Shown: positions 436 to 54,314 of the stretch, piece after piece | How positions within the stretch are numbered: the stretch's first letter is position 1 | How the letters are laid out: every line of letters begins with the position of its first letter | Source: a virus | DNA: 64,000 bases | UHGV virus genome: UHGV-1372779 | Reading direction: 5' to 3' (one strand) | Made by a program: the position numbers and the translations under genes | The notes under the pieces: generated by a model | The model's input: only the letters and a program-made list of their open reading frames with translations | Database searches by the model: none | Told to the model about the DNA's origin: nothing

Positions 436-3400
436 TTATGAAGTTTTAAGAGCTTCTAATTGTTCTAATACCCATTCTTGAGTAGCTAATTTTTTTATTG
501 CTGACGCACCTAAACTTGATCCCCAGTAAGCACCATCAGATTTAATAAGAATGCAAGAATTATCACTTGATCTTTGGATAAAAGGTCCTCCACTAGTTTC
601 AGACCATCCAACTAAGAATCTATTGTAACCTTGTACTCTGAAGATTTGGATTATATCAGTTCCATCAGGGTTATGATTATTAATTACAAAAGGAGTTGAA
701 CCATTTCCACTGATAGTTAATGGGCCAATTTGACCTCCTCTTTCTGTAATTATTTCATATTTTGCCCCAGTTGTTATTTGATGATATAATTTTTGATCAG
801 CAGCAGTTCTTAAAGTCACATGTGTTGCCGCACTATTTCCTACTACTACTCCACCATCGTTGGAGAACCAGTACCATATTCCTCCTTTAGTACAGTTTCC
901 AATACCTCCACCAGCTCCTTCACTTCCAGCATAGAAATCTAAACTTTCTCCTGTAGATAATGCTCCTCCTTTTGATGTGAGTACATTATATTCGGTAACT
1001 GTCACGTCTTCGCCTGCTGTATATGCTTTAGTTTCTCCTACACCTAAGGTTAAAGCTCCAGCATGTATTTTTAGATAAGTTGGAGTTCCTGTTGTTGCGT
1101 ATGGGACATTATATCCAGCTTTCCCCATATTAGGATTGATAAATCTATACAGTACTAATGCTCCAGAAGAATATTCTGAACCCATTCCTCCTCCCATAGT
1201 TCCTGCGTAATATAGACCATATCCTAACTGACCATTAGTAATATTATTAGAGTATCCTACTAACATAGCAGTATCTGATTGGATTCTTCCTGATGAAAAT
1301 ATTCCGCCACTAGGTACTAAAGTTGTATTTGAATAATTAGGTGATACTAATAATGAACCAACTTTTAATTTTTTAGCTGTTCCGGTGTTTAATAAGCCTA
1401 TTTCATCAGCATTTCCTTCTAAGTGCATTCCAGTGCCACCAAAGTAATAATTATTAGCATAAATGTTAGCTGTATACACTTTTTGGAATGCCCACTCACT
1501 TGTACCTAATGATGACATACCTCCTGATGATAGATCAACCTTTGAATTAGGAATAAATCCAGCTGTTGGAGATCTTAGCCATGTTAATTCAACACTATTC
1601 TCAATAGACCATAATCCAGGGTAAGCACCTTCACCTATAACATATCCTGCTGGCTTTTCATCTGCAGTTATTACTCTCTTCCAGTTGGATGAATCACCGT
1701 ACCCTAGGTTGTTGGGAGTTCGGAAGTACATGTAACGAGTACTACCAGCGACATTATGATTAACGTCAAAGGCAAGTTGAGGCATTAATGAGAGTGAACT
1801 TCCTGATCCACTACCCCATATTTGGAGAACTGTACCATATTGCATATTAGTCGGACCGTTTATCCAGTAAGAAGGTCCTGTGTAATTATATGCAAGTTTA
1901 CCCTTATCTGGTCCTACTAAATCTATGTTTAAATCATAGGATGTTTTGTCTTCATGAACGAACCCGTAAGTCCACTTAGTGTTAGGTATGACAGATTCCC
2001 AGTTGAATTCATCAAGTATTTTATAATTAGTAGAGTTTTTAGTATGATATAAATCACTGTCTCCACTTCTGATATATGTTACTCCAATAGCTCTACCTAG
2101 ATGTTGTGAATCAGCATTATTATACAAAATAAGAAAAGTATCAGTTCCTGAATCTACCAACTCCCATGATGATGGCACATATAATTTATCTGGATAGAAT
2201 TTATATTGAGCAGAATAATATGCTACATCTCCTAACCCTATGTAAGCATACTTAGCATTAGTATCATTCCCGTATCCTGCGAACCTAATCATAGAATTTT
2301 GATTACTATTAGCCTTTAAACTTAAACCACGATCCCATCCCTCACCTTCTGAAACTGATAAATTAACTGTAACATCATTATCTGAACCTATTATAAACGA
2401 CCCAACGTTAAACTGTCCAGCAGTGAAGGAGTTATTACCTGTAAAGACATTATCTCCAGACTTTGTTACTGGATCTGAGAGGTTGCTAGCATCCCATATC
2501 TTATAATCAGTTAATCCCTTTCTATGAATCAAATCCACGGCTCCACTCCTTATCTTGGTGGTTCCTGATGAACGACCAAAAGTAGCAAGACTTTCACCTT
2601 CCAAATTAATAATAGTGTTATTTAAATCTTTCAAACACCATATTGATGGAACATTCCAACTTATTATATCAAACTTGTATTGTGCAGTACGAGAAGGAAC
2701 TCTACCAAAACGGAGATAAAAGTAATCAACATCACCTTCACTACCCCAACACCCGATCGAAACTGGGATTTTTCCAAGATTATTGTTGGTCCACGTAATA
2801 CCACTTTCAAAATTACTAGTTTCTGGTATGTGTATTACCATTGATCCTTCACTCAATACCTCTAACGGACCCACTGAAAAATTTCCTGCGACGAAACTGT
2901 TAGTCCCGGTGAAAGCGTTATTCCCTGATTTAGTAACAGGATCAATAAGATTATTTCCATCCCAAATCTTATATTCTGAACCAGATGTATAATGTACTAA
3001 ATCAGAATTAGAATATAAAACAGTCTTACCACTTGCTACTCCAACTCCTAATACATTATTACTGTCTAATCCTAGAACAGTTCTGTTATTCCCTTCTGAA
3101 TCTTTAATTATATACCCAGAATTATTAGGAGTTATAAATGCAGATCCTTCTATTTGAGCATCAGATGATAGAATATTCTCTTCTGATCCAGATACCTTAG
3201 TGCCATTAGCAAAATATAAATCACCTGTTAATTTATTCTCTGAACCAGCTGATAAGGGCAGATAATCAGTTAATACTACTTTCTTATAAGTACCATCATC
3301 CGATAGAAATCTATTACCTGTTCCAGATTTAGGCAAGGCAAAAAAATTCTCTTGAACAAAAATAGAACTTCCCGCAGTAATTTGAACACCATAATTTGCA

Positions 3401-6400
3401 ATATTTAAATCTAAAATTGCAGATCTGGAACCAGGAGTAGTACTAGTTATATAACTAGCAAATAATATTACTGAATCTCCAATAGAGGCAACAGCATTTA
3501 CTAATCTAAGTTCTGGCTCACTTCCAAATTTAAGATAAATATCTCTTCCAGATTTATGAGCCTGATAAATTTCTGTTATTTCTTCAGAAGTATATACTTT
3601 TTCTGTATCATTTATATCAATAACTATAGGCGATATAGAAGGAACTTGAATTTCTTTATATGTACCATCATTAGATAAATACTTATTTCCATTCCCAGTA
3701 CCTATAAGATTAGTATACTCACTACTAACTTGAATAGAACTACCTTCAGATAATTCATATTTATAGGAGATTAATATAGTATCTAATCCTGTATCTCCTG
3801 ATTTTTTCTCATGTAATATTTTAGGAACATAAAAACTTAAATAAGCCATTCCTTCTCCCTGACCTCTTTGTCCTACAACTTCTGTTGCTCTTATTATATT
3901 TTCTCCATCCAATATAAAGATAGGAACTCCTTTTGAATAAGCTTCTAATATACTATGTATTTCTTCTCTAGTGTATACTTTATTATCCTCTGAATCTATA
4001 ATTATTGGGGATATAGAAGATTCTATTTCCTTATAAGTTCCATCATTGGATAAAAATTTAGTTCCATTACCTAAAGAATCTAATACAAAATCCCTATCTC
4101 CATTAAACATTAAAGTAGGATCTTTTAATGTTACAGTATTATTAGCTTTGTCTAGTAAATAAGTGCCTACACTAATCATTGCATAATTTATACTGTTTCC
4201 TGCAATTATATTAAGAGAAATTATTGTATCACTTATAGGAATTACTGTACAAGGATAAATAGTTCCATTTACATTTAAATAAATCGCATACTTAGATTCT
4301 GCCTTTTCTTTAATCTCATCAAAATAATTTAATAATTCTGAATTATCATTGAATTGAGGTATAATATAAACTTTATCTAATAAGGACTCTTTAATACTAA
4401 ATTCTCTATAAGGAACCTTATTCTCATCTTCTTTTTTATCTCCTATATCAAATTGTTCTTTATTAGGCAGTGGAATTTCAGTAACATATTCTTTTAACCA
4501 TGCAGGATTATATAATCCTCCATAAGGCATTACACTTGAATTTGAAGGATAGGGATAAATTGTCGGATAGTTTTCTACTATTATTTCATTATTTTCAACT
4601 TTATGAGAACTGAAAGTTAAATAGAAATACTTATCGACTCTATAAGAGGATAAAGAAGGGTTTGCAAAATTTGACAAAGATCCATCAGGGATTCTACAGT
4701 TAAACTCTAAATAATTCCCATTCATTGACATTTGAACATTTAGAGGCAAAATTTGTGAATATCTTATATTTAAATTCTCTTTGTCCGCATCTGGCATATA
4801 GCCTCCTATCGCTGGGTTCTTTAAAAAGCAAGTTCTTATAAATATCGGAGTTCCTTCTTTAACTGCTTGGATAAATTTATTCCAAAAATCTAAGGTATAA
4901 AATTTAGGGTAAAGAACAAAACTCGGATATTTATCATAATCCACACCTGCGAAATCCCCATATCTAGACATATTTGAATACATTTGACTTAAAGCTCCAT
5001 AAATAGTATAGATGCCTCCAGTTCCTGTAACATTGGGATTCTCTTGCTCAGCAAATGTCATGTCCCAAACAAAGCTTCCTCCTTTAACTTCTAAATATTC
5101 ACCATTATCAGATAAATATTTATTACCTTCTCCACTAGTAATAATCTTATCAACTTTAGATTTATCAGAATCAGAATAATCATTACTAGATAATCCCTTA
5201 CCTTCTTCTTTGTCAACCTTCCGATTTAATAACTCCTTAATATCATTAATCTCTTCTCTAGAAATATTATCTCCATACTTAATACCTTGGAACATAATAT
5301 ATCTATTATCAGTAATGAAGTATAAAGTACCTTGATCTATCTCATTTAAAGATGAATATTCTTGAGAAGTTACATATTTTAACTTAATTTCTTGATCTTC
5401 TCCATCCCATTTAAATTGGGCTACTAACCCATCTTCAGTTTTAACTAATCGAACTCCACTATCACTTTTAGCTAAAACTAAATTAGCTTGAAGTCCTATA
5501 CTTGTTTGGATTAATTCAACAGTAGGAAGAGGATTAGAGTTATCTAATGATATACTAGAAGGTCTTTTTATAATAATAACATGAAATGTACTTTCAATAG
5601 TAATCTCAGTTGTAGTAGTTCCGTCTGTAATGACTAAGAAAATATCCCTATTAGTGAAATTTAAATACTCTTGTCTTATAACTGAATATGTAATAACATT
5701 AATAGGCTCAGCAGCTCTAAGACTGAATGGAGAAACATCCGATCTATTTATAGAATTTAAAACAATGTGTCTATTATTTATAATAGCATTAGCTATTTTA
5801 TTATAAATTTCTTCAGTTACATATTCTACTTGTAGATCCTCTATGTTTATAATCTCAATATCAGAGAATATAATTCCTTCTCCAGTTATTTCTACAAATG
5901 TTCCATTATCCATAAGAGCCTTGTTTCCGGCCCCAGTTAGTTCTGGATAACTGTCTAACTTATTCTTTCTTGCTTCAGTTAAATCATATGTAGATAATCC
6001 TTTTCCTTGAACCTTATCAACTTTGTTAATAATAGTTCCTACTAATGTTTTTTCTTCACTTGTGTAATCATTACTGGATAATCCTTTTCCAGGCTCTTTA
6101 TCTACCTTATTATCCACTGACTCTTTAGTTGCAAGTTCAACTTTCTCAGTTTTGATTAAATTATTGAGCTTGGAGATAATTATATTTTTCTCTGTTAAAT
6201 TATTATCCTTAACTGTTAATATAATCTCATTATCAGTGTCTGATATTAATATGACTGATTTAATTAATCCTGTATTATCAGTAGTATAAATATCTGCATT
6301 ATTCTCTATAGCTAGAACTAATCTATTGTAATTCTCATCTGATATTCTTCCTCCGCTTGGTATATCATTTATTTCTGATAAAATTAAAGTTTCTGAGGAT

Positions 6401-22851: not shown

Positions 22852-23128
22852 TTAAGTCTATTTTTTCTCCTACACTAAATTTAGTTAAATTGAGGTTTCT
22901 ATTTAAGAGATCCTCTCTTACATAGTCTAGAAACTCATCTATTGAAGTACATTGTACATAGATTTTACATGTAGGAGTAAGAAAATCTTTATTCATATAA
23001 AGACTAAGAATAAATCCATCCTCTTTTTCTTCTATCTTCATTTTTCCTACATATATTGCTTCATATACTTCAAGTATTATATCTTCTATTTTGCAAATTA
23101 GCTCTTGCTCTTGCGACTTTGTCATCAT
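22772..23128 (-). CDS. Hypothetical small protein (about 118 aa)
   Basis: ORF bridging the terminase and portal genes. It overlaps both neighbours in other frames and the true start is probably at ATG 23125. Confidence 0.3.
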   Translation of the reverse strand: MMTKSQEQELICKIEDIILEVYEAIYVGKMKIEEKEDGFILSLYMNKDFLTPTCKIYVQCTSIDEFLDYVREDLLNRNLNLTKFSVGEKIDLNDYKKRNRRAGQENSENKSYNLGSCL

Positions 23129-24743
23129 TTATATCATATTGTAAATTAGCTAAATCTTGTAAATCTTGAATTGGATCAGGCTTAACTCCATAGTGTTTAA
23201 TCCCATTATCATCATACCAATATCCAAAAGGTTTCATCTTATTTGCATTCATTTTCTTTGCAACAGCTCCCCATGTTCTCATCTCTTGATCACCTATTTC
23301 ACACATCCCCATCGCAGCAATAATATCGAATTTTCTCTTGTCTTCAAAAGAGTATTTACTTAACTCTTCTAACATAGCTAAATCATCTATTGTAAAGCAA
23401 TATTCCAACACAAAATCAGCTATAAGTTCTAGATAATATTCAATTGTTTGTTTAGATGGGTATACCCCAAACATATCAGTATTAGTTACTTTATTAGTAG
23501 GGTTAACTGAGCTTGGCCGCCTCATTAAAAGACCTTGCTTTTTTCTATCCTTAAAATGGTTTACAATAGCAGTTCTTGAACTTTCAAGTACAGCTTGACA
23601 ACCATAAAATTCTAATAATTTAATTGTTTGATTATATGCTTCTTTAATATTTCTAGGACGATCTTTATATATAGCCACATATTTAGGAGGCTCCAATCCA
23701 AATGTTCTTCTTTTAATTACTAAACAGTAATCAGAAACATCTTTTTGACCAGTCGATTGATCTATACCTTGGTCAATAGAGTCAATTCCTGCTACATACA
23801 AATTCTTAAACAGAGCTCCATTCTCATCATGTCTGGGAAGCTCATATATTCTAACTTTGCCATTAGGAGAAGGTAAAAATTTGAGAATGTCTTGATTTAA
23901 ATCTTTACTATAGGAGTAGTCTACTATTCCAACTTTAGGTTTAATTCCGGAACCATGAACTTTAATATCCGTTATTCTAGCTGCTATAGCTACTGAATCA
24001 AAGATATTATCACCCTGTCTAGAAAGTGCTTCATCTGGGTTGTAACAATATTCAGCACAATATGTAAGATAACCTTCTGGAGATCCAGCTTTGGCATCTC
24101 TTTTCTTATTATAGTACTCAATCGCTTTTTTCTTATTACATACTCCTCTTTTATCTATAATTCCATCTATAATAACTACACTATATGCAGGAATAAAATA
24201 AGATGTAACTACATATTCACCATCTGCCGTGTGATTATGTTTATATGGAAGTATATCATATTCTTTTGGGTTATAAAATAATTCATTTAATCCAGCTACG
24301 GCAGGACCTTCATCACCTCCAGTACCATATCCTATCTTAAATCCTATTCTAGATCCACCCACTATAATAAGAGCATCACCTTGAATCCATTTTTTAATCA
24401 AAACTGGATCAGATCCAACCTCTTCATATAATAACATCTCAGCTCTATCACCTCTAACCTTACTAGGTTTATCAGCAACAATTCCAGTAATCATAGATCC
24501 AAAACCAGACTCATTACCTTCTCTATCTTTCTTAGAGGCTTTTTTCTGAGTAGCTGTATTAACAGCTTGTCTAAGATGTTTAAACCCTCCTTCTGTTTCT
24601 GTATTTAAATAGTCTAATTGTCTCCAACATTTTTCTAATGTCTTAGAAACAAATAGATCTGTGAATGCTGTGTATATAGCTTGTTGTCTTCTCTTAACTG
24701 TATAAAGATTTACACCTAAACAGGCTCCCATTTCTGACCATCC
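23070..24743 (-). CDS. terL: Terminase large subunit, exon 2 (Walker B plus RNaseH-like nuclease domain)
   Basis: RAEMLLYEEVGS is Walker-B-like. YVAGIDSIDQG...DYCLVIKRR matches the start of a terminase nuclease domain. The ORF lacks any Walker A, and its frame is open upstream only to the stop at 24744..24746. Confidence 0.6.
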   Translation of the reverse strand, partial: GWSEMGACLGVNLYTVKRRQQAIYTAFTDLFVSKTLEKCWRQLDYLNTETEGGFKHLRQAVNTATQKKASKKDREGNESGFGSMITGIVADKPSKVRGDRAEMLLYEEVGSDPVLIKKWIQGDALIIVGGSRIGFKIGYGTGGDEGPAVAGLNELFYNPKEYDILPYKHNHTADGEYVVTSYFIPAYSVVIIDGIIDKRGVCNKKKAIEYYNKKRDAKAGSPEGYLTYCAEYCYNPDEALSRQGDNIFDSVAIAARITDIKVHGSGIKPKVGIVDYSYSKDLNQDILKFLPSPNGKVRIYELPRHDENGALFKNLYVAGIDSIDQGIDQSTGQKDVSDYCLVIKRRTFGLEPPKYVAIYKDRPRNIKEAYNQTIKLLEFYGCQAVLESSRTAIVNHFKDRKKQGLLMRRPSSVNPTNKVTNTDMFGVYPSKQTIEYYLELIADFVLEYCFTIDDLAMLEELSKYSFEDKRKFDIIAAMGMCEIGDQEMRTWGAVAKKMNANKMKPFGYWYDDNGIKHYGVKPDPIQDLQDLANLQYDINDDKVARARANLQNRRYNT

Positions 24744-24746
24744 TCA

Positions 24747-25771
24747 TGGTCTTGTTGTCCTATAAGCTTTTTATCCTATAGTTCTGGGAGTTTCCTCCTT
24801 ACTTATTACCGAAATAGAAATAATAAGATATTCTGATTTAATCATCAGACAGTTCAGCGTACATTTTCACCCAAACAATGGGGCCGACACTCTTGGAGAT
24901 ATTATTTCAATCTCTACGCGTTACGGTGGTCAATTAATAATTGACTTACCTCGGTATTAACATAGTAATTAAATTTATTGAACTTTCTACTCATATAAAA
25001 ATTAGAATTATCATATAGTAAATGGAATATTTTAGAAACCTCCTTCTTTGATGATGTACTTATTCTATACATATCATCTCTAGATAAATAATTTAAGTTG
25101 ATTTTAATATTATTTAATCTAAAGAAATCTATTATATCTTCTAATATAGAAGAATATTTAGAACAGATCTCAAACTTAAATCTAAACCTATCTGATTTCC
25201 CTTTTTCAGAAGCAATCCATCCAATAATAGATCCATCTCCATCAAAATACCCTCTAATAAAATGAGGAATGAGATCTTGAGAAATATTAGGAATTTTTAA
25301 TTCTTTATAAGTTTTATTATAACCAAATCCTATATCATTTAGAGAATTTACCAATATGGTGCTATTTATATCAACTCCTTCTTGAGGTCTTCCAATATAG
25401 GTTTTATCTCCTCTTCCTTTAATTTCATAAGAATCAATATGAAACCTTCTACTATTAGGAGAAATATATTTAGATATTAACTCTATAATGTCCCTGTCTT
25501 CTTCACATAATTTAACTCTAAAAGTTTTTCTTTTCTCATCAATAGACCCATCAGCAGCAAAAAATCCTAATAGGTATGCTTGAATTTCAGTTACAATATT
25601 ATTAAAAAATTCATGTCTAACTTCTCTTTTACTTCCATTATTAGTATATAATGGACAAATCTTGTTAAGAATCACTTCTTGGTCATTTACATTCATAATT
25701 TTTATATTTTTAATCGTGTTATTTTTTAATCACCTTAGCCTTCACCGATTTTGCCGGATTTAAAATATACA
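24747..25771 (-). mobile_element. Putative group I intron with LAGLIDADG homing endonuclease, interrupting terL
   Basis: About 1 kb separates two terminase-like ORFs. It contains a LAGLIDADG ORF flanked by GC-enriched, structured, non-coding segments (24747..24913 and 25697..25771). Exon 1 ends in ..FALKSRG (P-loop-like) followed by a stop inside the putative intron. Confidence 0.5.
24914..25696 (-). CDS. LAGLIDADG homing endonuclease (260 aa)
   Basis: Two LAGLIDADG motifs: LLGFFAADGSI and IRGYFDGDGSI. Confidence 0.8.
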   Translation of the reverse strand: MNVNDQEVILNKICPLYTNNGSKREVRHEFFNNIVTEIQAYLLGFFAADGSIDEKRKTFRVKLCEEDRDIIELISKYISPNSRRFHIDSYEIKGRGDKTYIGRPQEGVDINSTILVNSLNDIGFGYNKTYKELKIPNISQDLIPHFIRGYFDGDGSIIGWIASEKGKSDRFRFKFEICSKYSSILEDIIDFFRLNNIKINLNYLSRDDMYRISTSSKKEVSKIFHLLYDNSNFYMSRKFNKFNYYVNTEVSQLLIDHRNA

Positions 25772-26617
25772 TTACTGTATATTGGGACAGGCATTTATCC
25801 CTCTAGACTTTAATGCGAAGACATTTAGTCCTAATTTTTTACAAAGTTCCACATAGTGGAAATATTTATATTGTTCTGCAATAAATGTAGGAAATGAATC
25901 ATTTCTTACAGTTACCTTAGCCTTAGAATCAGATTTAAGAACAGCAGGAGAATCCATTCTATAGAAATTTAAATAGAAGTAATTATCTCCTGTTAAAGTA
26001 TATCCATTATATGTATAACCATATATACATCTTCTTTGTTGCTCTAACCAATATTTAACATAAGAAGGACCATTTATCTCAAATGAACTATACTTGCCAG
26101 TAGCTTCTTTAGTCATAGCAGGCTCTCTAAACCAATCTGGATCAAAATCTAATCCCTGTGTTTCAGTGATTGGTCTATATCCAGTTAATTCATAAGATAA
26201 ATCTGGGTCAAAATATTCTATTGGATCATCTATTCTCACATCCCAATTTGTGAACTTAACATCTTCTCCATTTACATGATATAACTTTCTAAATTCTTCA
26301 TTATCAAAGTTTTCTCTAGTCTGATCTGCAATTTCTAAAGATTGTCTTATGTAATCATTATCGTACAAAACTAAATCTTCTTCTTTTGGATCATCTAATA
26401 AATGCTCTGGAATGTGATAAATAGTTGCTATTTCTTCATCTACTAAATCTTGAGAGTTTATTTTATCTAATAATTCCTGTGTTGTTTCTCTTTTACGATA
26501 AGCTCTTTTAGGCTTAGATTCCTTTTCGAGTTTAGCTTTTTCCCTGGCTTTCTTCTCTTCCTCTTTCTTTCTAAGCTTTTCAGCATTACCTTTAGCCCCA
26601 AAAGTCTTCTTAGCCAT
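25772..26617 (-). CDS. terL: Terminase large subunit, exon 1 (N-terminal region up to Walker A), 3' end approximate
   Basis: Basic N-terminus. Ends ..LNVFALKSRG (KSRG P-loop-like) then reads through into the intron to a stop. Together with exon 2 it gives about 830 aa. Confidence 0.45.
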   Translation of the reverse strand: MAKKTFGAKGNAEKLRKKEEEKKAREKAKLEKESKPKRAYRKRETTQELLDKINSQDLVDEEIATIYHIPEHLLDDPKEEDLVLYDNDYIRQSLEIADQTRENFDNEEFRKLYHVNGEDVKFTNWDVRIDDPIEYFDPDLSYELTGYRPITETQGLDFDPDWFREPAMTKEATGKYSSFEINGPSYVKYWLEQQRRCIYGYTYNGYTLTGDNYFYLNFYRMDSPAVLKSDSKAKVTVRNDSFPTFIAEQYKYFHYVELCKKLGLNVFALKSRGINACPNIQ

Positions 26618-39167: not shown

Positions 39168-40151
39168 TTAAAAGTTATTTATATTATTATAAAGATTAGT
39201 AATCATTTCTTTAAATTGATCTATAGTTAAATCAGATTTAGCTTTATTCACCACACTAGAACATATACATACATTTCCTTTTATATACCCTTTATTAGAA
39301 TCAATTCTATCTAAAGAAGGATTGGAATGAAGACTTTCTGAATCTAATTTAATTCCAGAATAATAACATCTCCCCTCCTGTTTATTTAGTAAATCTAAAA
39401 GATATTCCTCATCTAAATTAAACTCTAATTTAGATTTTAATATACCTTCTCTTTTTCTCCTAGTTCTCAAAGATTTTTTACAATTGGTTAAAAGATTTTT
39501 TACTATATTTAATTTTGATCTTTTATTTATACAAGATGTACATATAGATTTACTTTTGCAATTACCAAATTTATTAGGATCTGTTTCTCCACATATTTTG
39601 CACTGAAACTCAGAAGTTTTAATATTAACATCACCAGAATTTAGAGTGTTATCTATTTGAATTTGACCTTCATGATTTATTACTATTCCAAAGTTATTAT
39701 CTTTTAAATTTCTTCTTACAACAGAAGACTTATTTTTAAGTACCTCAAAAACATCCCCCTCTCCGAAGTCTTTTATCTTGTTGTTAATTCTGTATATAAC
39801 ATTTATGTCTAGAGATGGATCTATTTCAACTATCTTCCTAGGAGGAATTTTCTCAAATGAAGGCAGTATTTTTATTAGCCTACATAGTATTTCTTTCATT
39901 TGATAAGTCAATTTATCATCTAGTATAAACTCATAACAGTCCAAAGTCTCATTTAGTTTATACATAGGGTAAAATCCATTTTTATTAATCTTTTCTATTT
40001 TTCCCAATTCCAATAGATTATCTAAAGCCTTTTTAAGATATGTCTGCTTGAATCCATACTGAGATAAAATTTTGTACGATATAGTTGAAATTCCAGATTC
40101 TGAAAAACAATTTAATACTCTCAAAACTACTTCTAAATTTAAATTTTCCAT
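39168..40151 (-). CDS. Winged-helix plus Zn-finger plus HNH_3-like domain protein (327 aa)
   Basis: N-terminal wHTH. CKICGE...CKSKSICTSC zinc finger. C-terminal LDRIDSNKGYIKGNVCICSSVVNKAKSD is paralogous to the C-terminus of ORF 30447..31106. Confidence 0.45.
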   Translation of the reverse strand: MENLNLEVVLRVLNCFSESGISTISYKILSQYGFKQTYLKKALDNLLELGKIEKINKNGFYPMYKLNETLDCYEFILDDKLTYQMKEILCRLIKILPSFEKIPPRKIVEIDPSLDINVIYRINNKIKDFGEGDVFEVLKNKSSVVRRNLKDNNFGIVINHEGQIQIDNTLNSGDVNIKTSEFQCKICGETDPNKFGNCKSKSICTSCINKRSKLNIVKNLLTNCKKSLRTRRKREGILKSKLEFNLDEEYLLDLLNKQEGRCYYSGIKLDSESLHSNPSLDRIDSNKGYIKGNVCICSSVVNKAKSDLTIDQFKEMITNLYNNINNF

Positions 40152-48771: not shown

Positions 48772-48984
48772 GTGACTATTTTTAAATTAAAATCAAAATC
48801 AAAGATTATGGAAACTTATATTAAAATGTATAAACAAAGATATTATGGTTATTACTGTAATATGTGTAAGGATTTAGGAATTAAACCTGTTCCATACTGT
48901 GACTTTGATAAGAATTTATACAAAGAAACAAAACTTTTATTAAAAGATTCAATATTTTGGGCTAGTTCTGGATTTGACAGGTGA
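48772..48984 (+). CDS. Hypothetical protein (70 aa)
   Basis: Small ORF after the tRNA cluster. Confidence 0.3.
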   Translation: MTIFKLKSKSKIMETYIKMYKQRYYGYYCNMCKDLGIKPVPYCDFDKNLYKETKLLLKDSIFWASSGFDR

Positions 48985-49719
48985 TTAGAACAGTATTAAG
49001 ACATGTAGGAAGGCAGTTTCCTTATAAAGGCAAAACTAATAAATGCTAAAGGTAGAGTAATCTCCTTCTCTAGACCTGCAGCTATTGCAGCGTAAGAGTT
49101 GGGTTGTCAACTGACCTAGAAACAGAATAGTTGTAAATATTAAAAAAGGATTGTATTAATATAAGCAAACCAGAATCCTTGAACCTGTGAATCTCTAGGT
49201 TGTAAATATATTTTTTATATTTCCCTTTTAGAAGGTGACAGACCATTGGGTAATTCCATAGGAGCGCTGTTAGGCTTATGAAGTTTCCTTATTCTTTAAA
49301 AATAAGGTGGTGGAGTAGTAATCCATGATTACCCCAAAGTTTGGTAGTTTGTGTATAGCTGAAAAATGGACAGTTGTGTGATATTGTATAAGCACACAAG
49401 TCAGTAAAACTATCTATAATTGATCTATGTGATTTATAGATCATAAACATGTATATCTTAATACTAAGTAAATTGTCTGGACCGGAGTTCGACTCTCCGC
49501 TAGTCCACGGGAACAAGTTAGGTGTGCTCAGGGTAAAGCTCTGAGGGTTAGATATGGATGGAATCAGAAGTACTAGTCTCCTTCTGGATTGAACTAAGAA
49601 AAGAGTATATAAGCATAGTGGACGCACTAAATTTGTGAAATTACTCCACCAAAAGAGATTTTGGTCTAGTAGCATCTAACTTTTTTAAAAATATTAACAT
49701 TTTAAATAACAAAAACAGT
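48985..49719. ncRNA. 735-bp ORF-free structured region: degenerate group I intron-like element or other structured RNA
   Basis: No plausible ORF (only a low-complexity minus-strand ORF). Contains group-I-like blocks: ATTGCAGCG..GGGTTGTCAAC (P-element-like, 49093..49120), GATATGGATGGAATCAGAAGTACTAGTC (J6/7-R-like, 49551..49578) and AAGCATAGTGGAC (S-like, about 49618). Long-range pairing GGTGGAG-TAG-TAAT (49308..) with ATTACTCCACC (49640..). tRNA-T-arm-like hairpin tggac-cggagttcgactctccg-ctag-tcca at 49479..49508. Confidence 0.35.
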
Positions 49720-50312: not shown

Positions 50313-51836
50313 ATGAAAGTAGAATTAAATAACAAAGAAACAAATCCTTTTTCTGGGTTAAGAAACTGTTTGAAGATTTTTAACAACGGTGGTCAAGGCA
50401 TTACATTAAGTCAAGATGATTTAAATAAAGCCTGGGAAGAGGTAAAAGATAGTAAAGAGAAGAAAGAGATGTTTTTCTCTCTATTATTCTCATTAGGAGA
50501 TATTACTGCCAGACAACACAACATCTTTAGAGGTCAAAAAGTTGATTCTGGAGGTAATTCTCAAAGGGAAATTTTTTTCAACTGTATGGAGTGGATGAAA
50601 AAGAATATCCCAGATCAATTCTTTAAATTCATGAAATCTCATTTATTTAATGAGTACACTTGTTTTGATAATCTATTTAGGAATAGAGTCCAAACTCAGG
50701 GTAAGAAGATCATATCTATTAAATCTGTGTTGAACACATCTGATAATAGATATTTCAATGAGTTATTAGATTACACTGAATCTATTATCAAAGGTAAGAA
50801 TCCTTATGATAAGATGCTTGTAGCTAAATTCTTAACTCTTCCTAGATTATCACCAAGAAAAGAGCATAAACAAATGCTTCCTCAAACTAAAGAATTGATG
50901 AAAGCAAAGGCTAAATTCTTAGAAGAATTATCTAAGAGAATGAATTGGCCTTATAAAATTGAAGGAAATATACTAAACTTCAAAGGATATAGAGAGTGGA
51001 GGAAGGAATACAACTCTACATTAGAATCTGTTCTTTTCAGTACTGGAAAGATTAAAGATTTTGATGAAATTCAGTTTTTGGAATGGTTGGATAGAATCCC
51101 TGCACAAGCTAGATTCAGAGTGAGAAACAGAATCATGTTTGAGAAAGAGGGAACATTTAAATATCCTAAACTGAAAGAGTGGTATGAAAAGTGGGAGAAA
51201 TACAAAGAAGAGAAACAGGCAGAGCAAAGAGTTCTTGAAGAGAAAGTTCGCCAAGGACAGGCTAGTGTAGAGGATAAAGTTAAATTGGAAAAGGTTAAAA
51301 AAGAAGCCAAGGTAACAGTTGGATCTACTAACTTCCAAGAACTTTATAAAGAGATCCTTAGTGGAAGGATTGATAAACTTAAATTGGAGTCTTTTGTGAA
51401 TAACAAAGTAAGTCTTCAATATAATAGTTTAGTGATTATTGATGACTCCGGATCTATGGGTGGTGCGCCTTTTAACTTTGCTAAATTTATTGCATCTGTT
51501 TGTCTTGTTAAAAATCCAGATGATGATGGAAGAAACCTTTTAGGATTCTTCAATTATGATTCTAGACTATACGGAAGTATGGATAGAGCTGGAAGTAAGA
51601 CTCCTAATAGCTTAATGAGATCAAGTGTGAAGAATATTGTTAAGAAGCCTTTTGTAGATCCTCATAAGAGTTTCTATGAAAACTATCAAAACATTTCTTC
51701 ATTCTGCCAAGGTGTATTCCAAGGTGGAGGTACTAGAATAAATAGTATCCCAAAAGGATTTGCTGAACAAGCTAATAATAATCCTGTATTATTAGATGAA
51801 CTTATGCAATACCCAGTTTGGACAATTGTTAGTGAT
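50313..51836 (+). CDS. Ro60/Rsr-like protein, exon 1: helical N-terminal (TROVE-like) region plus first part of vWA domain
   Basis: About 370 aa helical N-terminal region, then a vWA domain starting VIIDDSGSMGG (MIDAS DxSGS at residues 376..381) with GGGTR downstream. Ends ...YPVWTIVSD followed by a stop at the intron boundary. Confidence 0.45.
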
Positions 51837-53045
51837 TAAATTCTATTCATAGTCACTCCCAATAGTAATATTGGTGTAAAAATGCTTTAAATTGCGGGAA
51901 ACTCCTTAGAGACTAATTAACTAAGTATAAACAGTGATGTTTATATGGCCTTATTAATGATTAAGGGTATAGTAAAATCAATTAGTATTGGAAAATCCGC
52001 AGCCAAATCTCTTTTATAAAATAATTTAATAAATTCTACAATCATTTTGATTTCTGAATTTAATTGTTTATATTTGTATTATGTTAAACTAATACAAATA
52101 AACATGAGAAAATTAGAACAAAATGAAATTAATAAAATTCTTCAGCTTTACACTGAAGAAAAATATTCAATATCTAAAATAAGAGCACTTTTCAAACTTC
52201 AATTTGATGATGTAAAACATATTCTAGAAGAAAACGGAATAAAGACAAAATCTCAAAGAGAAAGTAGAAAGACTTATGATTATAATGAAAACTATTTTTC
52301 TGAAATAAACACAAAAGATAAAGCCTATTGGTTAGGATTTATTTACGCTGATGGATTTATTACTAAAAAGGCTAAAGGAAGTCCAGTTTTTGGAATGACT
52401 TTAGGAGAAATAGAGCCATTAGAAAAGTTAAATAAATATATGGATTCTAACAAACCTATAGGAATATATAAGAAGAAAAATAGTTATTCTGAAAAATCTA
52501 TTGAATATAAATTAGCTTTCTGTTCTCCTAAATTAGTTTCAGATTTAGAGAAATGGGGAGTTGTAGAAAACAAAACATTCAAATTAAAATTTCCTAACTT
52601 TCTATCTCCAAACCTCATTCCTCATTTTATTAGAGGGTATTTTGATGGAGATGGGAGTGTATATCTTCACATTCAAAAAACTAAGGATAAGGAATATATA
52701 TTCTTGGGTTCCCAGTTTTGCGGAACCAAAAGTTTTCTTTCAGACTTATCTAAATATATAAACTTAGAAACTTGCTTATATAAAGATAGTAGAAAACAAA
52801 CTGATTGTTGGAGGATACAATTAAATTCAAACATAAGAAGCTTAACCTTATATCATTATTTATATAATAATTGTGAAGATTTATTCTTATCAAGAAAAAG
52901 GGAAAAATTTGAAAATTTTATAAAAGAGAGAGGTTCAACGACTACAATAAGCAATCCTATCTATGGTGATCCAGAATATTTAACTCTGTGTTATCTAGAG
53001 GATTAAGGTATAGTCTAATCTTATATGAAAGTATAAGTAGTTATG
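51837..53045 (+). mobile_element. Group I intron with LAGLIDADG homing endonuclease ORF
   Basis: AAATTGCGGGAAA (51893..51905) is identical to the Tetrahymena-type P element. Q-like AATCCGCAGCCAA at about 51993. GACTA/TAGTC P7 candidates at 51915 and 53012. Near-identical GATTAAGG(G)TATAGT blocks at 51962 and 53002 flank the endonuclease ORF. The 5' exon ends in U and the intron ends in G (53045). Confidence 0.6.
52047..53006 (+). CDS. LAGLIDADG homing endonuclease (319 aa)
   Basis: Two LAGLIDADG motifs: YWLGFIYADGFI and IRGYFDGDGSV. Confidence 0.8.
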   Translation: MISEFNCLYLYYVKLIQINMRKLEQNEINKILQLYTEEKYSISKIRALFKLQFDDVKHILEENGIKTKSQRESRKTYDYNENYFSEINTKDKAYWLGFIYADGFITKKAKGSPVFGMTLGEIEPLEKLNKYMDSNKPIGIYKKKNSYSEKSIEYKLAFCSPKLVSDLEKWGVVENKTFKLKFPNFLSPNLIPHFIRGYFDGDGSVYLHIQKTKDKEYIFLGSQFCGTKSFLSDLSKYINLETCLYKDSRKQTDCWRIQLNSNIRSLTLYHYLYNNCEDLFLSRKREKFENFIKERGSTTTISNPIYGDPEYLTLCYLED

Positions 53046-53354
53046 GGTGAATGGAATAATATGTATTCTCCAGAAGCTTCGATGAATGAATTCTTCAGAG
53101 ATTGTGAGAATCTTTTAGGATTTAGACCATTTATCATTGCGATAGATATTCAAAATCCTAATTGGGCATATCAGACATTTAAAGCTGATAGATTCACTGG
53201 TATAGATAATATGATCTATATTCCAAGTAACCCAGCTCAAATTGAGCAAATTCTTACAAATTTCAAGGACATTGAAATCTTTGATGTCTATACTCCGTTA
53301 CTCTCTTTATACAGAAGTAATAGATATGATCTAGTAAGGACTAATGTAATTTAG
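53046..53354 (+). CDS. Ro60/Rsr-like protein, exon 2 (C-terminal part of vWA domain)
   Basis: Joining ...TIVSD to GEWNNMYS... recreates the vWA h-h-h-(T/S)DG-x-x-N motif (IVSDGEWN). Continues with FIIAIDIQNP... Confidence 0.5.
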   Translation, partial: GEWNNMYSPEASMNEFFRDCENLLGFRPFIIAIDIQNPNWAYQTFKADRFTGIDNMIYIPSNPAQIEQILTNFKDIEIFDVYTPLLSLYRSNRYDLVRTNVI

Positions 53355-53429
53355 TCCTTACTATTAAAATGACTCAATTATTATAAAGAACAATACAGAT
53401 ACTTACAATATTACAAGAATCAATTTATG

Positions 53430-53454
53430 CAGGTTCAACTCCTGTCTTTTGCAT
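53430..53454 (+). pseudogene. tRNA 3' fragment (T-arm plus 3' acceptor strand) without upstream D/anticodon arms
   Basis: gcaggttcaactcctgt plus cttttgc plus a. The complementary 5' strand gcagaag, with a D-arm and a cuGAGaa anticodon arm, lies just downstream (53466..53510). This could be a permuted or rearranged gene. Confidence 0.35.
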
Positions 53455-53589
53455 TAGCAGAAGTGGCGAAATTGGTATACGCACTGGTCTGAGAAACTAG
53501 GAATATAATATTCAATAGTATCTATTTATGACTTTTCTTTTCCTTGCATGATATACTGATACTTACAAAATCAAAACCATCTGTGGGTC

Positions 53590-53648
53590 GAGGGTTCGAA
53601 TCCTTCAAATCGCGCGTTTTGCGAATTTAGCTCAGTAGGTTTAGAGCA
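53590..53648 (+). pseudogene. tRNA 3' fragment followed by a tRNA 5' fragment (acceptor plus D-arm only)
   Basis: gagggttcgaatccttc-aaatcgc-g, then gcgaatt-ta-gctcagtaggtttagagca. The two acceptor strands are complementary except for one A-A. No anticodon arm follows. Confidence 0.35.
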
Positions 53649-53731
53649 ATAGACAAAAAAGTATCATTCAGATAAGGAAATAATATTTTAGAATAAAAAT
53701 TATAAAGTCACTTACAATATTATCATAATTC

Positions 53732-53840: not shown

Positions 53841-53952
53841 GGGGATGGTTTATAACTATTAGTAAATTTATATTTACTTACAAAATCATAAACTGTACGG
53901 AAAAATTTACACCACAAATGTAAACAAGCAGGTTCGAATCCTGCCATCCCCG
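53841..53952 (+). ncRNA. 112-nt tRNA-like RNA (Y-RNA/YrlA-like candidate) with perfect acceptor-type stem ggggatg/catcccc
   Basis: Terminal 7-bp stem plus discriminator g. Canonical T-arm gcaggttcgaatcctgc. Anticodon-arm-like hairpin tttaca-ccacaaa-tgtaaa. No D-arm. Contains the internal ACTTACAAAATC motif. Confidence 0.45.
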
Positions 53953-54082: not shown

Positions 54083-54199
54083 GGGGAGGTTGAAATGTTG
54101 GAGTAAGAGTATCAGTTCATTGTGATACTTACAAAATCAAATTAATTTCGAATAAATTTGGGTTTTATCTTAACGCAGGTTCGATTCCTGTCCTCCCCA
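54083..54199 (+). ncRNA. 117-nt tRNA-like RNA (Y-RNA/YrlA-like candidate) with perfect acceptor-type stem ggggagg/cctcccc
   Basis: Terminal 7-bp stem plus discriminator a. T-arm gcaggttcgattcctgt. Internal ACTTACAAAATC motif. No canonical D or anticodon arms. Confidence 0.45.
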
Positions 54200-54241: not shown

Positions 54242-54314
54242 TAAATTGTAGCTCATTGGGTAGAGCATTTGATTTTTAATCAAAGGGTAGTGGGTTCAAG
54301 TCCCATCTTAGTGT
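54242..54314 (+). pseudogene. tRNA-Lys(UUU)-like body with non-complementary acceptor strands (pseudo-tRNA or non-canonical)
   Basis: D-arm tagctcattgggtagagca. Anticodon arm tttga-uuUUUaa-tcaaa. T-arm gtgggttcaagtcccat is identical to that of tRNA-Lys at 59069. 5' taaattg and 3' cttagtg do not pair. Outer stem cagacact/agtgtctg flanks the unit. Confidence 0.35.

Follow-up and report, generated by a model that had tools for sequence, protein, structure and literature searches.

A probable mobile group I intron with a LAGLIDADG endonuclease gene in a conserved vWA-fold gene of a gut phage

The td intron of bacteriophage T4 is a self-splicing group I intron of a phage protein gene, placed at the codon of a conserved site, with an open reading frame (ORF) looped out of its P6 region, and its homing is accompanied by co-conversion of flanking exon markers. 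The analysis reported here concerns a comparable element, located at positions 51837..53045 (+ strand) of UHGV-1372779, a 64,000-nucleotide stretch of viral DNA referred to below as the window. With high probability, this element is a mobile group I intron whose host gene is conserved and belongs to a crAss-like gut phage of about 185 kb, probably of the Zeta group. It differs from td in several respects: I-TevI, the td endonuclease, is of the GIY-YIG and not of the LAGLIDADG type, the host and the sequence are unrelated, and the 3' end of the window ORF runs through the 3' strand of P6, P7, the 3' strand of P3 and P8.

The window consists of phage DNA with portal and terminase genes. Its TerL is 45% identical to that of an unannotated human-gut phage and 26-30% identical to those of Crassvirales. 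Genomes of the Zeta group of crAss-like phages measure 145-192 kb, a range which the relatives of the window (about 185 kb) fit, and are reported to contain up to 14 group I introns each; LAGLIDADG is named as the intron-encoded endonuclease (Yutin et al. 2021, PMC7886860). A further source on the Zeta-group context is PMC12386605. The Zeta-group introns are elements of the same kind, found in conserved genes and in a similar host lineage. In PMC7886860 they were recognized through protein domains, and the genes listed are those of the major capsid protein (MCP), PolB, primase, an ATPase, TerL and RNA polymerase (RNAP); that study contains no intron in the vWA-fold gene considered here, no RNA structure of it and no splice junction, the term 'vWA' occurring 0 times in its text.

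Closer in sequence are the crAss-like phage cr271_1 (MT774394) and the Vibrio phages Va1, TDDLMA and SRILMA, in which a related intron lies in a split DNA polymerase gene and the P4-P6 domain shows 73-78% DNA identity to window positions 51866-52011. Like the window intron, those of cr271_1 and Va1 have the P, Q, R and S elements and a P1 helix with a U·G pair, whereas the host gene is different. The cr271_1 intron has no ORF and bears extra hairpins between P7 and the 3' strand of P3. P7.1/P7.2-like hairpins, which the window intron lacks, are present in cr271_1, L022, L059 and L015. In the Va1 intron, the endonuclease is of the MobE type (GIY-YIG family) and its gene precedes the P4-P6 core, in contrast to the LAGLIDADG gene in P6 of the window. 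This arrangement was noted at 1909..3225 of the Va1 locus (L003), and the sister phages TDDLMA and SRILMA annotate the region simply as 'DNA polymerase'.

The interrupted gene of the window is arranged as follows:

50313..51836, + strand: exon 1, 508 codons, encoding a helical N-terminal region and the first three quarters of a vWA-fold domain, ending ...YPVWTIVSD (last codon GAT)
51837..53045, + strand: group I intron, 1209 nt, opening with UAA and ending with the terminal (omega) G53045; evidence from intron-less alleles, Rfam half-matches and covariation
52104..53006, + strand: LAGLIDADG homing endonuclease gene, 300 codons, a free-standing ORF in the P6 loop that starts 267 nt into the insert
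53046..53354, + strand: exon 2, 102 codons (GEWNN...TNVI) plus stop

The sequence-only reading had described a first exon that ends ...TIVSD before a stop, a second exon that begins GEWNN and a 1.2-kb intervening sequence, and this description holds. In the ORF list, 50313..51839 is exon 1 plus a stop codon, TAA at 51837-39, which constitutes the first three bases of the insert; at the other end, ...GTTATG runs to 53045 and is followed by GGT GAA TGG AAT AAT (GEWNN). When the joined query (...TIVSD plus GEWNN...) was searched against 5.8 billion proteins, its matches comprised about 47 clusters of 610-aa proteins without an interruption, 98-100% identical over the full length and encoded on contigs of 181-187 kb. 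The same search returned P0049, a 508-aa cluster of 16 members identical to exon 1 alone, and a 507-aa relative, P0050. At the DNA level, exon 1 is 98.6-99.2% identical to intron-less alleles. Three of them (L001, L002 and L132) read ...ATT GTC TCA GAT GGA GAA TGG..., and the window reads ...ATT GTT AGT GAT (1209 nt) GGT GAA TGG.... Relative to these alleles, the frame is restored by one excision only, namely that of 51837..53045 with the junction GAT/GGT, because the bases before and after each boundary differ. In other words, the boundaries are exact, and the intron separates codon 508 (Asp) from codon 509 (Gly) in the frame of a 610-aa phage protein, which many related genomes encode without interruption. 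To place the junction, the spliced sequence was compared without gaps; a MAFFT alignment spanning the 1.2 kb of the insert put exon 1 in the wrong place. In spliced RNA the expected junction is GTTAGTGAT joined to GGTGAATGG, also written CAATTGTTAGTGAT joined to GGTGAATGGAATAAT, and the junction peptide is TIVSD-GEWNN.

In the host protein, DDSGS (377-381), T474 and W-T-I-x-S-D-G-E-W-N-N (503-513) are invariant in 28 homologues with 47-100% identity. These residues contain the pattern DxSxS...T...D of a metal ion-dependent adhesion site (MIDAS) in the form of D377-D-S379-G-S381, T474 and D508. In the AlphaFold model (pLDDT 75), VWTIVS forms a beta-strand ending at D508, and the best Foldseek matches are vWA domains, C2a (2.5e-3) being followed by CLCA1, RGLG2 and the integrin I domain. 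Sequence searches with the host protein gave no Pfam VWA family at E<=1, no PDB match at E<=10, no match in PHROGs and no tblastn match among GenBank phages. The domain is therefore most aptly regarded as one with a vWA fold that belongs to an unnamed phage family and not to any curated vWA family. In terms of fold and motif, the earlier proposal that the intron splits a vWA domain at its SDG strand is supported, as the junction falls in the invariant SDGEWNN block that holds the last predicted MIDAS Asp. The intron is thus placed exactly at a codon of the predicted metal-binding site of a conserved gene, and the modelled site may bind metal. The host family is small (157 representatives at 50% clustering), and several members end at 508-510 or begin at 509, which indicates that the same site has been occupied repeatedly.

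Such an arrangement might also be read as a gene permanently split by a free-standing endonuclease gene, without splicing, whose 508-aa and 103-aa parts assemble as subunits. Some T4-like phage genes split by mobE-type endonucleases do work as two separately translated subunits. In the window, the stop follows immediately after exon 1, a second ORF, 53043..53354 (MGEWNN...), starts exactly at an ATG formed by the last three bases of the intron (53043-45), and public gene callers annotate three separate genes. However, the triplet corresponding to this ATG is ACG in locus L166, the break would separate two invariant residues of one beta-strand/loop, most alleles show no trace of the insert, and approximately 300 nt of non-coding sequence around the ORF are conserved as a group I core with compensatory changes. 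A permanent split is thus very unlikely. On the group I intron reading, the three genes of public assemblies (508, 300 and 103 aa) are one 610-aa gene and an intron-encoded endonuclease.

The group I core consists of the following parts:

51831..51857, + strand: P1, exon AGUGAU (51831-36) and intron UA pairing with UAGUCACU (51850-57)
51859..51874, + strand: P2, CCAAUA-GUAA-UAUUGG with a GNRA loop; present in the minimum-energy fold, 3 pairs with two-sided changes in L166 and L170
51883..51887, + strand: P3 5' strand, UGCUU, whose partner AAGCA (52949-52953) lies on the far side of the entire ORF; covariation in A2 and A4
51889..52006, + strand: P4-P5 domain; Rfam match, minimum-energy fold and many compensatory changes
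51892-97 and 51997-52002, + strand: P4, 5' strand (P element) and 3' strand (Q element)
51903-05 with 51990-92, + strand: P5
51912-18 with 51980-86, + strand: P5a
51925-33 with 51938-46, + strand: P5b, GUGA loop
51949-53 with 51962-66, + strand: P5c
52003..52015, + strand: P6 5' strand, CC, internal loop AAAU and CUCUUUU, pairing with 52922-52933 (AAAAGAG, AGA, GG)
52920..53037, + strand: 3' half of the core, comprising the P6 3' strand, R, P7, the P3 3' strand, P8, S and P9; Rfam match
52940-44 with 53011-15, + strand: P7, GACUA (5' strand, R element) with UAGUC (3' strand, S element)
52954-58 with 52999-53003, + strand: P8, 5 bp; compensatory changes, e.g., C-G to U-A
53020-26 with 53031-37, + strand: P9, GAAA loop, then a tail of 8 nt before the terminal G; compensatory changes, e.g., U-A to C-G

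At the splice sites, the expected bases of a group I intron had been pointed out before and are indeed present. The last base of exon 1 is U (U51836), and the intron ends in G, both in the window (G53045) and in loci L166 (...UUACG) and L170 (...AAAUG). U51836 forms the wobble pair U51836·G51852 at the 5' splice site within P1 (AGUGAU/GUCACU), and this U·G is kept in five of five orthologues. In L170, P1 shows a compensatory change in which U51833-A51855 becomes C-G, the exon codon changing from AGU to AGC and the guide from GUCAC to GUCGC. A candidate P10 would pair 51846-50 (UUCAU) with GUGAA of exon 2 (53047-51).

The conserved elements of the core can be located precisely. The P element, which the sequence-only reading took to be exact, is AAATTGCGGGAAA at 51889-51901 and includes the sole exact AATTGCGGGAAA (at 51890) within 64 kb; the Q-like element is AATCCGCAGCCAA at 51994-52006 (string AATCCGCAGC at 51994), unique in the window even with one mismatch allowed. 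The R element, GTTCAACGACTA at 52933-52944, lies within the 3' end of the endonuclease ORF, and the S element, AAGGTATAGTC at 53005-53015, starts inside the stop codon of that ORF. With R and S at these positions, the elements follow the canonical order P-Q-R-S, Q and R being separated by the ORF, which is therefore in the P6 loop, and the earlier statement that the order is not fully canonical has to be abandoned. The GACTA/TAGTC candidates for P7 were ambiguous as listed, and covariation singles out GACTA 52940-44 with TAGTC 53011-15. Similarly, the near-identical GATTAAGG(G)TATAGT blocks do exist (51959-51973 and 53001-53014), but they are not scars of a secondary insertion flanking the ORF. 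The first, which precedes the ORF start by 130 nt, is composed of the P5c 3' strand and the GGUAUAGUAAAA motif, which is also found in the ORF-less relatives L006 and cr271_1; the second is composed of the P8 3' strand and the S element, and in L166 and L170 the two blocks have only GTAT(A/G)GT in common.

Evidence for the class of the intron comes from the Rfam model RF00028 (Intron_gpI), which recognizes both halves of the element once the ORF is cut out. The flanks were searched as separate stretches so that Infernal could take them as truncated matches. Positions 51885-52018 matched model positions 52-113 (23.3 bits, E 2.9e-4), and 52920-53037 matched model positions 124-253 (42.1 bits, E 4.8e-10), and the break between the two half-matches falls in the model's P6 loop. 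Aligned to the consensus, the halves show nearly exact P, Q, R and S elements together with the P9 GAAA hairpin, and the architecture of P6 (CC-AAAU-CUCUUUU / AAAAGAG-AGA-GG) is that of the consensus. The differences are a 906-nt P6-loop insertion, which keeps the full-length window intron below the gathering score, and the tail from P9 to the terminal G, 8 nt long in the window versus 2 nt in the consensus. Moreover, the P-element pattern TTGCGGGRANYTCCTTAGAG was found at more than 120 viral loci, and 9 of the 20 loci scanned are full Intron_gpI matches above the gathering score (58-100 bits); the P4-P5 domain of the window therefore belongs to a widespread, curated-positive class.

The unconstrained minimum-energy fold of the ORF-deleted RNA (-74.9 kcal/mol, z -3.0) independently contains P2, P4, P5, P5a-c, P6, P7, P8 and P9. 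In five ORF-deleted introns from the same site (window, L125, L162, L166 and L170), with all helices counted, 96.5% of 75 pairs are paired, compared to 35-45% when the partners are slid; 25 pairs are altered on both sides, and none of 500 shuffles reaches any observed measure. P5b and P5c carry several compensatory changes, and the first pair of the long stem of P6, C52009-G52928, is A-U in L166 and U-A in L170. A twelve-sequence set includes nine Rfam-verified introns and cr271_1; here only P3-P7 were counted, as MAFFT misaligned P1, P2, P8 and P9, and 94.6% of pairs are formed versus 30-45% with slid partners. P7 shows two compensatory changes in this set, with both sides changed in L056 and L058. 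Taken together, the Rfam matches and the covariation support a group I core.

Several points weigh against this interpretation. The intact region gives no Rfam group I match, either in the whole window at the gathering score or in 51600-53400 at E<=10, and each half scores under the RF00028 gathering score of 50 bits. The Rfam scan proposed at the outset thus gave nothing on the intact region and sub-threshold matches on its halves; in a purely formal sense, this is the refuting outcome named by the sequence-only reading, but the absence of a match is due to the ORF of about 900 nt in the P6 loop, and the locus illustrates how introns with an ORF escape covariance-model scans. Neither the ORF-less relative cr271_1 nor Va1 has an Rfam match at E<=0.1. 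P10 is weak, with 5 bp in the window and one pair missing in L125, and P8 could not be drawn convincingly past 5 bp. The covariation set is small (five orthologues), it relies on MAFFT alignments, and the structure was derived from the window sequence itself. Finally, we infer splicing, including self-splicing catalysis, from the sequence and the predicted structure.

The modest Rfam scores of the halves could also suit a decayed group I intron that no longer splices, the intron-bearing alleles then having lost the function of a dispensable gene (null mutants); the lineage of this intron does include decay, as the endonuclease of L166 is apparently frameshifted. This explanation is nevertheless highly improbable. 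All core helices of the window are intact, its P, Q, R and S elements match the consensus, and its endonuclease ORF is intact and under purifying selection. The identical 1209-nt intron was present in at least five independent samples on near-complete contigs, and exon 2 is open and conserved in every intron-bearing locus, down to 53% protein identity.

The ORF within the probable group I intron encodes a LAGLIDADG protein, as had been recognized from its translation: it matches Pfam LAGLIDADG_3 with 35.7 bits (cutoff 22.5) and phrog_4645 (endonuclease) with E 8.5e-55. Two intact motifs, YWLGFIYADGF and HFIRGYFDGDGS, are present, and ...GFIYADGF... and ...GYFDGDGS... are kept in L125 and L162. 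The final 28 or so codons overlap the P6 3' strand, the P7 5' strand, the P3 3' strand and P8. In loci L125, L162, L166 and L170, an intron interrupts the same codon position and encodes a homologue of the endonuclease, whose amino acid identity to that of the window is about 84% in L125, 84% in L162, 71% in L166 and 60% in L170. Relative to L125, differences at codon positions 1/2/3 number 35/26/98, with 78 synonymous and 49 non-synonymous codon changes, and this bias and synonymous excess indicate purifying selection on the endonuclease. Its enzymatic activity would be that of its family. In L166, at 4760..5010, the gene appears frameshifted in an A-run, with two tblastn pieces in different frames; either the endonuclease gene has decayed or the assembly is in error there. 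An imperfect long hairpin at 52042..52126 (+ strand), also detected as a self-inverted match, encloses the endonuclease AUG (52104-06; -21.6 kcal/mol, z -4.3 versus shuffles) and may control translation of the endonuclease.

LAGLIDADG domains occur in inteins too, and group II introns have been reported in phages (PMC12350094), so other intervening elements, namely a group II intron, an intein or a transposon insertion, were considered. The chance of such an element is negligible. The Rfam matches are to group I. An intein is excluded by the stop after exon 1 and by an ORF that is neither in frame nor fused and has its own start 267 nt into the insert. A group II intron was rejected, since the insert lacks a GUGYG...AY boundary, a reverse transcriptase and a domain V. 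A transposon was rejected as well: the insert has no terminal inverted repeats and no target-site duplication, and the exon junction is seamless. The two repeat blocks described above were discarded as a target-site duplication, because they are conserved core elements.

The mobile character of the group I intron emerges from the comparison of alleles. Most near-identical genomes are without the intron. Between L125 and L162, the introns are 99.7% identical, while exon 1 is 80.8% and exon 2 75.4% identical. All intron-plus alleles read GTT AGT GAT/GGT or, in L125 and L162, ATA AGT GAT followed by GGC or GGT; all three intron-less alleles (L001, L002 and L132) read GTC TCA GAT GGA. At -24, at -6 to -3 and at +3, the intron-plus alleles are without exception distinct from all the intron-less ones; these differences are all synonymous, and five of them lie within 9 nt of the junction. 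The flank differences create the P1 pairing in intron-plus alleles, and they may also make the intron-plus site uncuttable. Additionally, the window shows no difference from L126, L127 and L129 between -362 and the end of exon 2, with 21 differing sites farther upstream, a pattern that would be expected of a co-conversion or recombination tract. Presence/absence polymorphism, horizontal spread and synonymous marker differences in the flanks are therefore features of this locus, and the patchy presence, the near-identical introns in diverged exons and the flank differences together point to homing.

A mechanism consistent with these observations can be proposed. The primary transcript would fold into the P1-P9 ribozyme core, and an external guanosine would attack after U51836, held in P1 by the internal guide GUCACU through the U·G pair. 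The freed exon 1 would then attack after the terminal G53045, and ligation of GAU to GGU would restore the ...TIVSD-GEWNN... frame of the 610-aa protein with its C-terminal vWA fold, whereas translation of unspliced RNA would stop at the UAA opening the intron. The endonuclease is predicted to cut intron-less alleles near ...ATTGTCTCAGAT followed by GGAGAATGG... (the intron-less site is CCAGTTTGGACAATTGTCTCAGATGGAGAATGGAATAATATG, its spliced intron-plus counterpart ...GTTAGTGATGGTGAA...). During co-infection, repair from the intron-containing genome would copy the intron together with short tracts of flanking exon. From the anatomy, a regulatory role is conceivable in addition. The stop follows directly after the codon of the last predicted MIDAS Asp, and unspliced RNA would give a 508-aa protein, so that the efficiency of splicing could determine how much truncated protein, with an incomplete vWA domain, is made relative to the full-length form in the course of infection. 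The start-codon hairpin could add to such splicing-dependent control, although regulation of this kind is unlikely.

The locus provides a clean natural case of intron presence/absence polymorphism, flank co-conversion and cross-lineage transfer in abundant uncultured gut phages. General knowledge of group I introns is unchanged by it, and crAss-like Zeta-group phages were already known to be intron-rich.

Further signs of intervening elements were noted elsewhere in the window. The TerL gene is also split, at 23070..26617 (- strand), where 25772-26617 corresponds to profile positions 71-187 and 23070-24731 to positions 242-734. Its insert, at 24914-25696, encodes a second, paralogous endonuclease (PHROG 4645, E 1e-32), which is 33% identical to that of the intron in the vWA-fold gene. 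The insertion is probably a second group I intron; its RNA is without the P, Q and S strings of the first. A 327-aa ORF at 39168..40151 (- strand) with an HNH / endonuclease VII-type domain (phrog_3322, 1035 and 3118) is possibly another homing endonuclease, either free-standing or intron-borne.

Downstream of exon 2, two apparent circularly permuted tRNA genes were found, which may matter more than the intron and are probably more novel:

53397..53523, + strand: permuted tRNA unit A, T-arm and acceptor 3' strand at 53429-53453, TTA spacer, then acceptor 5' strand, D-arm and anticodon arm at 53457-53503
53557..53666, + strand: permuted tRNA unit B, with 6/7 acceptor pairs only and few ARAGORN calls

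When the pieces of unit A (anticodon GAG) were re-joined in silico, ARAGORN called a tRNA-Leu with 7/7 acceptor pairs. Against the Rfam tRNA model, its downstream piece matched positions 1-45 (E 0.0027) and its upstream piece positions 42-71 (E 0.047). Across 55 related loci (398 kb, including L125-L177), 45 permuted units were found, 40 of them distinct and all on the coding (+) strand; the same scan gave 0 in shuffled sequence and 2 spurious matches in 1.1 Mb of unrelated viral DNA. Most units are valid tRNAs once re-permuted, and their anticodons include the suppressors UCA and CUA. Acceptor and T stems covary between units, for instance, GCAGAAG/CUUUUGC in the window versus AGAAAAU/AUUUUCU in L162 and L135. 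A helix of leader and trailer, e.g., AGAUACU/AGUAUCU or AGCUACUU/AAGUAGCU, shows covariation from one unit to the next and would hold the break in the permuted tRNA closed. The anticodon at window positions 53491..53493 varies by strain, being GAG in the window and L125, GAA in L132, L001 and L133, UAA in L002 and CAA in L162 and L135, and the tRNA body is unchanged between near-identical strains despite these differences.

Permuted tRNA genes are known from Cyanidioschyzon merolae, and two-piece tmRNAs arise from permuted genes. By analogy, the possible products of the phage units are two-piece tRNAs, as in two-piece tmRNA, or tRNAs ligated via a circular intermediate. No report of permuted tRNA genes in phages was found in the literature searched.

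Other RNA elements of this region were observed as well. A tmRNA match at 48959..49510 (+ strand) reaches 49 bits in Rfam against a gathering score of 47 and covers 552 nt for a 374-position model, while ARAGORN found no tmRNA there; it could be insertion-bearing, permuted or two-piece, or a marginal match. Two tRNA-like elements of about 115 nt, at 53841..53952 and 54083..54199 (+ strand), each have a good T-arm, a perfect 7-bp acceptor stem (GGGGATG/CATCCCC and GGGGAGG/CCTCCCC, respectively) and a 50-60-nt insert with ACTTACAA between the anticodon region and the T-arm; ARAGORN gave no call on either, even allowing introns. Rfam gives a partial tRNA at 54248-54307 (model positions 7-64). The motif (N)TACTTACAA(A/T) occurs at 53400, 53560, 53711, 53877, 53961 and 54127 (+ strand), 12-45 nt upstream of tRNA elements, and precedes normal tRNAs (Ile 53732 and Thr 53980) as well as 3' pieces of permuted units. 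The upstream portion of the motif pairs with the trailer belonging to the same permuted unit, and the motif could be a phage promoter (TACAAT-like -10) or a site of RNA processing or pairing.

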